From a virus (lineage: Duplodnaviria > Caudoviricetes), in IMG/VR virus record IMGVR_UViG_3300042870_001240: a stretch of 64,000 bases of DNA; one strand, 5' to 3'. The notes beneath the pieces were generated by a model. It searched no databases and was not told where the DNA came from. It was given only the letters and a program-made list of their open reading frames with translations. Shown piece by piece: positions 60,278-62,281 of this stretch; position 1 is the first letter of the stretch, and every line of letters starts with the position of its first letter. The position numbers were made by a program, and so were the translations under genes.

Positions 60278-61336
60278 TTACATGTCTTTAGGAACGTAAA
60301 ATGACCCACCATTATCTTCAAAAGAGTGACCATTTGTTTTTAATAAGTTGTTTGGTGTGCCTTTTAAATTTATAAAAGCCAAACGTTTAAAGTCTTTTAA
60401 ATCAATATCTCTAAAATCAGCTCTTTCACAATCTAGTAATGCCATATAAGTAGTGTCTGATGGTAAATTTGATAATAAGTCAGAAACCTCATCCTTATCA
60501 CCGTTTTTTAAATATACCAGACCATTTTCCGCCCTACTATGGGAATTATCACTGTAAAATTCGGCATCTGCTGAACGAACTTGTTCATTAACCGATTTCA
60601 TTTTTTTAGTAACGTAAAATGACCCACTATCATGTTCAAAAGAGTGACCATTTGTTTTTATTAAGTTGTTTGGTGTGCTGTCTAAATTTATAAAAACCAA
60701 ATCATTAAAGTTGTCTAAATCAATATCGCTAAAATCGGCATATTCACAATCTATTAATGCGAGAAATTGAGTATCTGATGGTAAATTTGATAATAACTCA
60801 GAAACCTCATCCTTATCACCGTTTTTTAAATATCCTTTATACTTCCCGCTTAAGGAACTATCACCACGATATTCTCTACGAGCTTCAGTATAATCTTCGT
60901 CTTCTTGTTCATTAACCGATTTCTTTCTTTTAAATACAGGAAACTTTCCACCGTGTTCCTGAGAATATCCTTTAAACCATCTTCTTCCGTGTTCAGTATC
61001 AGGGAAAGTTCTTTGACCTTTTTTATATGGGTATTTTTCATAAAAAGCATCGAAATCGTCTTCATCCCATTCTTCAACGTCCATATCCGTATCATCTTCA
61101 ATATCTGATACATTATCATTTTTATCATAATAATATGATTGGGACGGTCTTACTTTATAGAAGAAATCATCGTCATAATTCTCTTCTTCTTGTTCATTAA
61201 CCAATGGTTTAACATTACCATGTTTAGCCCCCATCAACCTACGGAAATTTTCGGTCATAACTTTCATTCCACCTGAGTGTTGTTTAAGGATATTATTTTT
61301 TTCTTCCTTAGAAATGTTATTTAATAAATGTTTCAT
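60278..61336 (-). CDS. Modular protein with three VNEQ junctions and a duplicated ~75 aa module
   Basis: LVNEQ, SVNEQ, SVNEQ; two YLKNGDKDEVS...GSFYV copies. Confidence 0.75.
   Translation of the reverse strand: MKHLLNNISKEEKNNILKQHSGGMKVMTENFRRLMGAKHGNVKPLVNEQEEENYDDDFFYKVRPSQSYYYDKNDNVSDIEDDTDMDVEEWDEDDFDAFYEKYPYKKGQRTFPDTEHGRRWFKGYSQEHGGKFPVFKRKKSVNEQEDEDYTEARREYRGDSSLSGKYKGYLKNGDKDEVSELLSNLPSDTQFLALIDCEYADFSDIDLDNFNDLVFINLDSTPNNLIKTNGHSFEHDSGSFYVTKKMKSVNEQVRSADAEFYSDNSHSRAENGLVYLKNGDKDEVSDLLSNLPSDTTYMALLDCERADFRDIDLKDFKRLAFINLKGTPNNLLKTNGHSFEDNGGSFYVPKDM
60293..60832. repeat. Direct repeat of ~220 bp, offset 318 bp
   Basis: 60293-60514 versus 60611-60832, with long identical tracts. Confidence 0.9.
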
Positions 61337-61382
61337 ATTTTATTTTTAATTATAAATATACTCAATTAAATAAAAAATCACA

Positions 61383-61700
61383 TTATCTAATAATGTTGTT
61401 AATGAATAGTTTTACGTTAGGTACCCATTCTGAAACCCTATATTGAATCTCGGCTCTAATATTATCAAAATCTTCTCGTCCTGTGTTAGTATAAATGTCA
61501 ATATAAACAACAATCCCAACATGAGGAACAACTCTATCAATAACAATTTTATCTATGGAATCAACTTCATCCAACTCATCCATTTCACCTAATCCCCATT
61601 CTTGAGATTCCTCACGTATATTATCCAATTCGGAGTCAATCACATTTTGAATATGAGCCTGTAATTTATCAATTTGATTTTCCGTAATTATTATTTTCAT
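61383..61700 (-). CDS. Small protein with MKIIITE N-terminal motif
   Basis: MKIIITENQI. Confidence 0.75.
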   Translation of the reverse strand: MKIIITENQIDKLQAHIQNVIDSELDNIREESQEWGLGEMDELDEVDSIDKIVIDRVVPHVGIVVYIDIYTNTGREDFDNIRAEIQYRVSEWVPNVKLFINNIIR

Positions 61701-62281
61701 TTTTTGTAATGAGTCATGGTTGGTTTATTACCTGTTCCTACTTTTGGGTCTTTCTTTTCCGCCCTTCTTTTTTGTTGAGTCATCGCTTTTTTCTCATCCT
61801 TGTCATATGATGAAGCAACCTTTGGTGTTTCAGATGAAACCTTTTTTGATGGACGACATTTTGGATACGCTTTACCGTCAGCATCTTTTCTTCCACAAGG
61901 TGGATGTTTACCATCGACTTTTTTACTTACATCAACCCATTTTTCTTTAAACCATCGTTTTAAATCCTCATTAAATGATTCTTTTTTTGGTTCAATCCCT
62001 TTTTTTTTCATATTAATAGCAATCGCCGCTTGTTGCGCAGGACTTGATGCCTCGTTTCTTTCTTCTGATTCATTGGTCGGTTTCTTTTTCCAACGACCTC
62101 CTTTAGATTTATATCTTTTAGCCGCAGCACCATTACAATAAGCGCTTGGACAAACTTTATATCTTGACCTTGCCCAAGCCAAACATTGTGACCAAAGTTT
62201 TGGGTTGGTTGGTTTATTTTCACCTTCGATTAGGAGTCCTTCCAATAATTTATATTGTTCTTCGGTAATTAAAATTTTCAT
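61697..62281 (-). CDS. Basic modular protein with MKILITE motif and xNE junctions
   Basis: MKILITEEQY; modules KPTNPKLW...KGGRW, ASSPAQQAAIAI and DLKRWFKEKWVD...PCGR...YPKCRP. Confidence 0.75.
   Translation of the reverse strand: MKILITEEQYKLLEGLLIEGENKPTNPKLWSQCLAWARSRYKVCPSAYCNGAAAKRYKSKGGRWKKKPTNESEERNEASSPAQQAAIAINMKKKGIEPKKESFNEDLKRWFKEKWVDVSKKVDGKHPPCGRKDADGKAYPKCRPSKKVSSETPKVASSYDKDEKKAMTQQKRRAEKKDPKVGTGNKPTMTHYKK

Follow-up and report, generated by a model that had tools for sequence, protein, structure and literature searches.

The closest known system to the one described here is that of phage T4, in which a capsid-targeting sequence acts together with internal proteins (IPI-III and Alt) and the gp21 protease. 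The T4 internal proteins are very diverse cargo behind a conserved tag (PMC3012670). Proteases of the T4 type cut after glutamate (Glu), T4 Alt being cut at ITE-6 and LTE-619, and the cut site in phages SPN3US and phiKZ is (A/S/G)-x-E (PMC5694885). Here we analyze two open reading frames (ORFs), ORF1 and ORF2, from a 64,000-nucleotide (nt) stretch of viral DNA (Caudoviricetes; IMG/VR record IMGVR_UViG_3300042870_001240), the whole of which is termed the window. Their cargo is similarly diverse, and we propose that they encode leader-tagged cargo precursors of a T4-like giant phage with a putative Bacteroidota host.

ORF1 (60278..61336) encodes 352 amino acids (aa) on the minus strand, as do all ORF1 and ORF2 features given below, and consists of a leader followed by modules A, B1, and B2. 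The first-pass annotation of this DNA had described the gene as carrying the tetrapeptide VNEQ three times, each at a module boundary, and this layout is confirmed. The leader (61193..61336, aa 1-48) is basic (isoelectric point, pI, 10.1) and portable, and its C-terminal end reads K-P-L-V-N-E; the first VNEQ site (61190..61201, aa 46-49) forms its junction with the cargo. The second site (60905..60916, aa 141-144) joins the acidic module A (60908..61192, aa 49-143, pI 4.6) to module B1 (60584..60907, aa 144-251), and the third (60581..60592, aa 249-252) joins B1 to module B2 (60281..60583, aa 252-352), which is a diverged allele of B. The three sites have an identical coding sequence of 12 nt, GTTAATGAACAA, and 18 nt are common to sites 2 and 3. 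Across all 96 genes of the window, VNEQ was seen three times against 0.16 expected, with every instance in ORF1, whereas only 0.2% of ORF1 shuffles contain it even once. If ORF1 were cut after each of these Glu residues, the predicted pieces would be the basic 48-aa leader and acidic pieces of 95, 108, and 101 aa, the three cargo modules having a similar pI. A tblastn search of ORF1 against 50,697 phage records gave no match, and profile searches of Pfam, PHROGs, and NCBIfam matched it to no family and detected no peptidase domain. The ESM Atlas returned weak leads for module B, leucine-rich-repeat or pentapeptide-like (scores ≤0.82), on which we do not rely; B1 is possibly leucine-rich-repeat-like.

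The distribution of the leader was assessed by querying a set of 1.8 billion cluster representatives with residues 1-52 of ORF1. The leader is present in 664 clusters at E ≤ 1e-3 (238 at E ≤ 1e-10), almost always at residues 1-50, and the sequences downstream of it are mutually unrelated across clusters. Its homology always ends at K-P-L-(V/I/L)-x-E. A sequence logo of this junction was compiled from 169 proteins. Its position was defined by the first Glu that follows the K-P-x anchor, so that the Glu found at P1 (the residue before the proposed cut) in 169/169 proteins is partly a product of construction. Upstream of it, Lys, Pro, and Leu occupy P6, P5, and P4, and P3 is aliphatic in 169/169 (Val in 115, Leu in 31, Ile in 23); P2 is Asn in 88, Ser in 44, and other residues in the remainder, and P1' is Gln in 114, Glu in 23, and otherwise variable. 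The leaders of both ORF1 and ORF2 are N-terminal tags that end in aliphatic-x-Glu and precede varying cargo.

The ORF1 leader is also found by itself, in ORFs of 53-58 aa that have next to no cargo (L123 1126-1287 of relative G002, 53 aa; P0159). Only one leader-bearing locus is present in each of the two complete ∼310-kb relatives, which suggests a single hypervariable slot per genome. The second half of the leader (E-N-F-x-x-L-M ... K-P-L-V/I-N/K-E) is repeated inside one protein and lies at the C-terminus of another (P0012, P0014), where these half-leaders look like fusion scars or reusable connector units. A bacteriocin-type double-glycine leader (GG at ORF1 aa 22-23) was also considered, and was rejected on the basis of its different spacing, the lack of an NCBIfam match, and a leader homology that runs 25 residues beyond the GG.

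For both ORFs, homologous modules are found rearranged in relatives, with sites of this type at their boundaries, which was the check that the annotation had proposed. Among relatives of ORF1, the observed orders are leader-A-B, leader-C-A-B, leader-D-B, leader-D-A, leader-C-D-B, leader-E-A, leader-B, and leader-D, so that the same module is found in first, second, or third place. Module A lies behind other leaders or modules in P0003, P0008, P0010, and P0011; B is the only cargo of P0151, and D of P0150. Two further modules, Y and W, lie directly behind the leader in P0213 and P0231, respectively, and after B-like modules elsewhere (Y after B' in P0016, W in P0015). Modules in last place have a plain C-terminus followed by a stop (KRKK for A, TKNL or TKNM for B, QPFK for D), while those in internal places carry 4-6 extra residues ending in (K/S)VNEQ. 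The joints seen are S-V-N-E-Q, F-V-N-E-Q, L-V-K-E-Q, S-V-N-E-A, M-V-N-E-Q, M-K-E-S, and L-S-E-Q; in all of them Glu directly precedes the next module, and the residue two positions upstream of it is usually aliphatic. The motif, previously written xNE, is better rendered (V/I/L)-x-E. In the cargo of leader-bearing proteins, internal VNE[QA] occurs 14 times against 0.41 in shuffles, in approximately five cargo families, and synonymous changes lie within the motif itself (AAT/AAC at the A/B joint of close relatives, GTT/GTG/GTA at P3 of the leader joint). The (S)VNE↓Q connector (the arrow marks the proposed cut) behaves as a standard joint.

The last two modules of ORF1 had been described as a recent duplication with a 318-bp offset. 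The register stands for the module cores, which in the 318-nt register share ∼88% nucleotide identity over ∼235 nt, but a recent origin does not, given a protein identity between B1 and B2 of 65%. The first ∼70 nt of the two modules are unrelated, and the junction-to-junction spacing is 324 nt. Furthermore, the single B module of P0001 and P0151 is 83-85% identical to B1, and that of P0002 and P0003 is 89-90% identical to B2. Because each is nearer to a single B elsewhere, B1 and B2 are best regarded as two diverged alleles joined at VNEQ and not as a recent in-place duplication. For the same reason, the match between the B1-B2 boundaries and VNEQ sites, which had been put forward as independent support for cleavage, provides none; it shows instead the joining of cassettes at VNEQ.

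ORF2 (61697..62281; 194 aa) comprises a shorter leader and DUF5872-type modules, and its match to Pfam DUF5872 (PF19197; 62.9 bits against a cut-off of 27.5, in two stretches) places it in that family. The leader (62225..62281, aa 1-19) is of the MK-I-L-I-T-E class and ends in L-I-E before G20. It is followed by a basic helical module (module 1; 62069..62224, aa 20-71, pI 10.2), a middle mini-module (61967..62050, aa 78-105) whose presence varies among homologues as an indel in the alignment, and a basic C-terminal module (61700..61966, aa 106-194, pI 10.0) with (V/F/L)-N-E↓D just before it. All four sites reported earlier between the basic modules are found, namely LIE↓G (aa 17-20), TNE↓S (69-72), RNE↓A (75-78), and FNE↓D (103-106). 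The pieces between them are basic (pI 9.4-10.2), and the three NE dipeptides of ORF2 exceed chance weakly (shuffle P = 0.02).

At the leader joint of ORF2, compared across 120 homologues, P3 is Leu in 87 and Ile in 32, P2 is variable, E19 is present in 120/120, and G20 in 117; this joint is kept under three leader classes, and also where an extra module of ∼75 aa is inserted between leader and joint. At the C-terminal joint, P3 is Val in 101, Phe in 10, and Leu in 7, followed by Asn in 113, E105 in 121/121, and D106 in 120. The three parts of ORF2 also occur in three different genes of the relatives G001 and G002, each after x-x-E. In G002, a 353-aa ORF contains the C-terminal module, preceded by V-T-E↓D. 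In G001, an ORF of 160 aa has the middle module directly behind a different leader, flanked by M-D-E↓A and K-N-E↓T. The N-terminal DUF5872 module, also in G002 (L121 736-1180; G002:188235-188680), comes after the V-N-E↓G of a gene with a leader and after an A-rich run, but it is out of frame with that gene, as is also seen in G004; a frameshift, a decaying fusion, or a fault in the assembly could each account for this. The two ORF2 halves also occur separately in cultured phages, and module 1 occurs alone in cyanophages.

An exact 38-nt probe from the window start led to contig G006, which is 95.7-98.1% identical to window positions 1-7108. On this contig, ∼13.4 kb ahead of the first position of the window, lies a Peptidase_S77 gene (79.6 bits; cut-off, 27). 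The encoded protein is 33% identical to T4 gp21, with the His of LNHP and the Ser of SSRG aligned, and matches PDB 5JBL; by way of G006, an S77 (gp21-type) prohead protease (L142 1916-2638, minus strand) is thereby assigned to the phage lineage. An S77 protease and a gp23-type capsid protein are also encoded in G001 and G002 (complete, ∼310 kb) and in G004 (a 152-kb fragment), and the relatives have a T4-like head module of scaffold, protease, portal, and terminase. In a BLASTP alignment, LTE65↓A of T4 gp23 is paired with LINE60↓A of the clade capsid protein; T4 gp23 is cut between Glu65 and Ala66. LINE↓A is kept in 80/80 sampled clade capsid proteins, and also in the capsid gene of contig L144, which has an exact 38-nt scaffold/capsid spacer in common with G006. 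The same motif is thus found at the capsid maturation site, where the cut is predicted by homology, and the aliphatic-N-E at this expected cut is a site of the same kind as the module joints.

Several proteins encoded near the head genes of the relatives either have a start of the form ...R-I-N-E↓A or contain x-N-E↓A-T-G-S. A unit of the form x-N/T-E↓A-T-G-S-G-S-S-G, which resembles LINE↓A-S-S, recurs near the N-terminus or between parts of proteins whose genes adjoin the head genes (L117 1147-2208 in G002; L034 111-554; L035 4307-4987) and may mark further protease substrates. The portal gene encodes 938 aa in G002 (L034 12752-15568) compared with 605-626 aa elsewhere (L035 12586-14466 in G001; L142 4828-6645), and the additional sequence resembles an intein that includes a homing-endonuclease part. 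Genes of the HNH- or GIY-YIG-like type are located beside the capsid and protease genes (L034 6220-6900; L142 2628-3314).

The modular anatomy, the portability of leaders and modules, the motif at every ORF1-family junction, the protease family with its conserved catalytic residues, and the capsid-site match are direct observations, and from the sequences we infer prohead targeting, cleavage, and delivery to the host. In the mechanism proposed, the N-terminal leader (48 aa in ORF1, 19 aa in ORF2) would bring the chain into the core of the assembling prohead, as in T4. The gp21-type (S77) protease would then cut after Glu at (V/I/L)-x-E, taking off the leader and separating the modules, so that ORF1 would give three acidic proteins (11-12 kDa) and ORF2 two or three that are small and basic. 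The freed modules would be retained with the DNA and would probably accompany it into the host. With (S)VNE↓Q as the connector, modules can be added, swapped, or dropped by recombination. That the leader targets the chain to the prohead and the S77 protease frees the modules at (V/I/L)-x-E is the explanation that we favor and, on balance, think probable. A broader proposal, which we make tentatively and hold to be possible, is that of plug-and-play loading: (S)VNE↓Q would be a universal connector for interchangeable effector modules of ∼100 aa behind one capsid-targeting leader, so that each virion would inject a recombinable cocktail, drawn from one hypervariable slot per genome and hundreds of cargo families clade-wide.

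A number of observations weigh against proteolytic release of the modules. These phages are uncultured, and cleavage and presence in the virion are predicted from sequence anatomy. The protease and capsid genes were read from relatives in the clade and from a contig with 96-98% identity to the window, and not from the window record itself. The ORF1 leader is five times the length of the T4 targeting sequence, and each of the two complete ∼310-kb relatives has one leader copy only. In P0013, two tandem B-like modules are not separated by a (V/I/L)xE, which indicates that B modules can function uncut. The identical junction DNA in ORF1 may represent recent copying and not selection, and across the genome of G002 the excess of [VIL]NE[QA] is modest (11 against 5.9 ± 2.6) and is not used as support. 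In ORF2, Pfam takes the two halves as one family, and the sites TNE↓S and RNE↓A have Ala, Thr, Ser, or Lys and Thr, Phe, or Arg, respectively, at P3, with no aliphatic residue; because of this, the sites flanking the middle piece fit the (V/I/L)-x-E rule less well.

Several of these points would be accommodated if ORF1 and ORF2 encoded multi-domain proteins that remain uncleaved, with VNEQ as a conserved linker or recombination joint comparable to the VENN boundary of CdiA toxins. Such a joint would be in keeping with the 12-18 identical nt common to the three ORF1 junctions, with two alleles, B1 and B2, being joined exactly at VNEQ, with the fusion-scar look of the half-leaders inside P0012 and P0014, and with the site-free tandem of P0013. 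We nevertheless consider it unlikely: it leaves unexplained that the joint coincides with the T4-type protease consensus and with the predicted cut site of the capsid protein, that only a motif of 4-6 residues is kept at internal joints, and that Glu at P1 and an aliphatic residue at P3 are maintained despite variation at P2 and P1', and the synonymous changes within the motif also speak against it.

Cleavage could also occur without delivering multiple proteins, either through removal of the leader only or, as in SPN3US and phiKZ, with the leader and acidic module A forming a long propeptide that is chopped and expelled, so that the last module alone stays. There is precedent in the long propeptides of SPN3US, which are cut repeatedly and their fragments cleared (PMC10052503), and in the T4 core proteins, which are likewise cut at several sites (PMC5694885); module A is, moreover, acidic and of low complexity, like the scaffold proteins of L034 and L144. 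However, each of modules A, B, and D is also found behind a leader as sole or final cargo (P0008, P0010, P0150, P0151), and none of them is therefore merely a spacer; the similar pI of the three cargo modules also speaks against this alternative. We consider cleavage without delivery of multiple proteins unlikely, and rate it slightly below an uncleaved linker. Chance recurrence of the motif in ordinary small phage proteins could be entertained for ORF2 alone, given its shuffle P of 0.02 for three NE dipeptides, but is refuted for ORF1, where three VNEQ are present and few shuffles reach one, and the motif lies at module joints in many relatives; as a general account, it is highly improbable.

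AlphaFold2 models of the two proteins were poor, with a mean predicted local distance difference test (pLDDT) score of 49 for ORF1 and 54 for ORF2, and were used only as a profile of order and disorder. Every proposed site in both ORFs falls in a segment with pLDDT <50. By comparison, 10-residue blocks score 57-73 in ORF1 module A, 52-64 in the B cores, and 63-84 in ORF2 aa 21-70. These profiles lend weak support to a location of the sites in exposed linkers.

The window is AT-rich (∼31% GC), and its genes include those for ClpB, Hsp70, thymidylate synthase, a T4-type RNA ligase 1, and a GH19 lysin with a peptidoglycan-binding domain. The Hsp70 and a histidine kinase raised the possibility of a giant eukaryotic virus, which is ruled out by this lysin and by the T4-type head genes; the window therefore belongs to a large phage. 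The window Hsp70 has no homologue in G001, G002, or G004, which are accordingly treated as clade relatives and not as the same phage.

Within the window, ORF1 and ORF2 belong to a series of small genes on the minus strand, and many genes of this series have an N-terminus of the MK-Y/I-I-I-T-E type. At least a dozen further window genes begin with portable leader types, of the forms MK-Y/I-I-I-T-E, ...R-L-T-E-x-D-L...V-I-x-E-Q, and ...Y-L-N-E-Q; examples, all on the minus strand, are 50531-51106, 55602-56045, 51632-51916, 35744-36781, 57072-59675, 61383-61700, and 62681-63019. Another minus-strand gene (26072-26626, 184 aa) begins with a shorter relative of the ORF1 leader (E-E-K-x-S-I-L-D-Q-H core), has K-P-N-E-Q at aa 33-37, and may represent a further leader class. 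The stop of ORF2 overlaps the start of the next leader-bearing gene (61383-61700) in an ATGA at 61697-61700, an arrangement suggestive of coupled translation among genes of the cluster.

Should cleavage at the junctions occur, an abundant uncultured clade of freshwater giant phages has extended the T4 internal-protein principle to modular cargo assembled by a standard connector, with a single leader serving hundreds of cargo families. This would point to a large unexplored pool of small injected proteins, likely host-takeover or anti-defense factors, and would offer a natural template for packing more than one protein into T4-type capsids. The predicted cleavage rule, (V/I/L)-(N/S/x)-E, could also be applied to annotate mature head proteins in these phages.

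In comparison with T4, the phage described here likewise has a head module with a gp23-like capsid protein, S77 protease, scaffold, and portal, and an N-terminal tag ending in aliphatic-x-Glu; the ITE at the start of many window genes is the same as the ITE-6 site of T4 Alt (PMC5694885). Unlike in T4, the ORF1 leader is 48 aa long instead of ∼10 and precedes hundreds of cargo clusters across an uncultured clade, and the predicted cargo is a chain of independent modules joined by repeated sites. The T4 core proteins gp22, gp67, and gp68, which are precursors of internal peptides, are diced inside the head by the prohead protease (PMC5694885), as proposed here, but they are scaffold components of fixed sequence and not shuffled cassettes.

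Phages phiKZ, 201phi2-1, and SPN3US (proteases gp175 and gp245) also combine a gp21-related protease with several cuts after Glu per precursor (PMC10052503, PMC5694885). In these phages, however, the motif is (S/A/G)-x-E and most of the additional cuts serve to remove long N-terminal propeptides, whereas the pieces between sites in the present case are portable modules that are also found as cargo on their own. Polyvalent proteins (Iyer et al., 2017; PMC5512222) are similar in having several effector units per polypeptide, packaging in the capsid, and proposed processing. They differ in being large, with 2-15 recognized conflict domains and an embedded metallopeptidase that carries out the processing, a task that would fall here to the prohead protease acting on modules of ∼100 aa. 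ORF1 and ORF2 are not polyvalent proteins as so described, since ORF1 matches no Pfam, PHROG, or NCBIfam family and ORF2 matches DUF5872 only. Searches of the available literature on these systems and on DUF5872 returned no description of such module chains. The system differs from those known in three respects: a long leader found on hundreds of cargo clusters, small cassette modules, and a minimal, repeated connector that matches the predicted cut site of the capsid protein.

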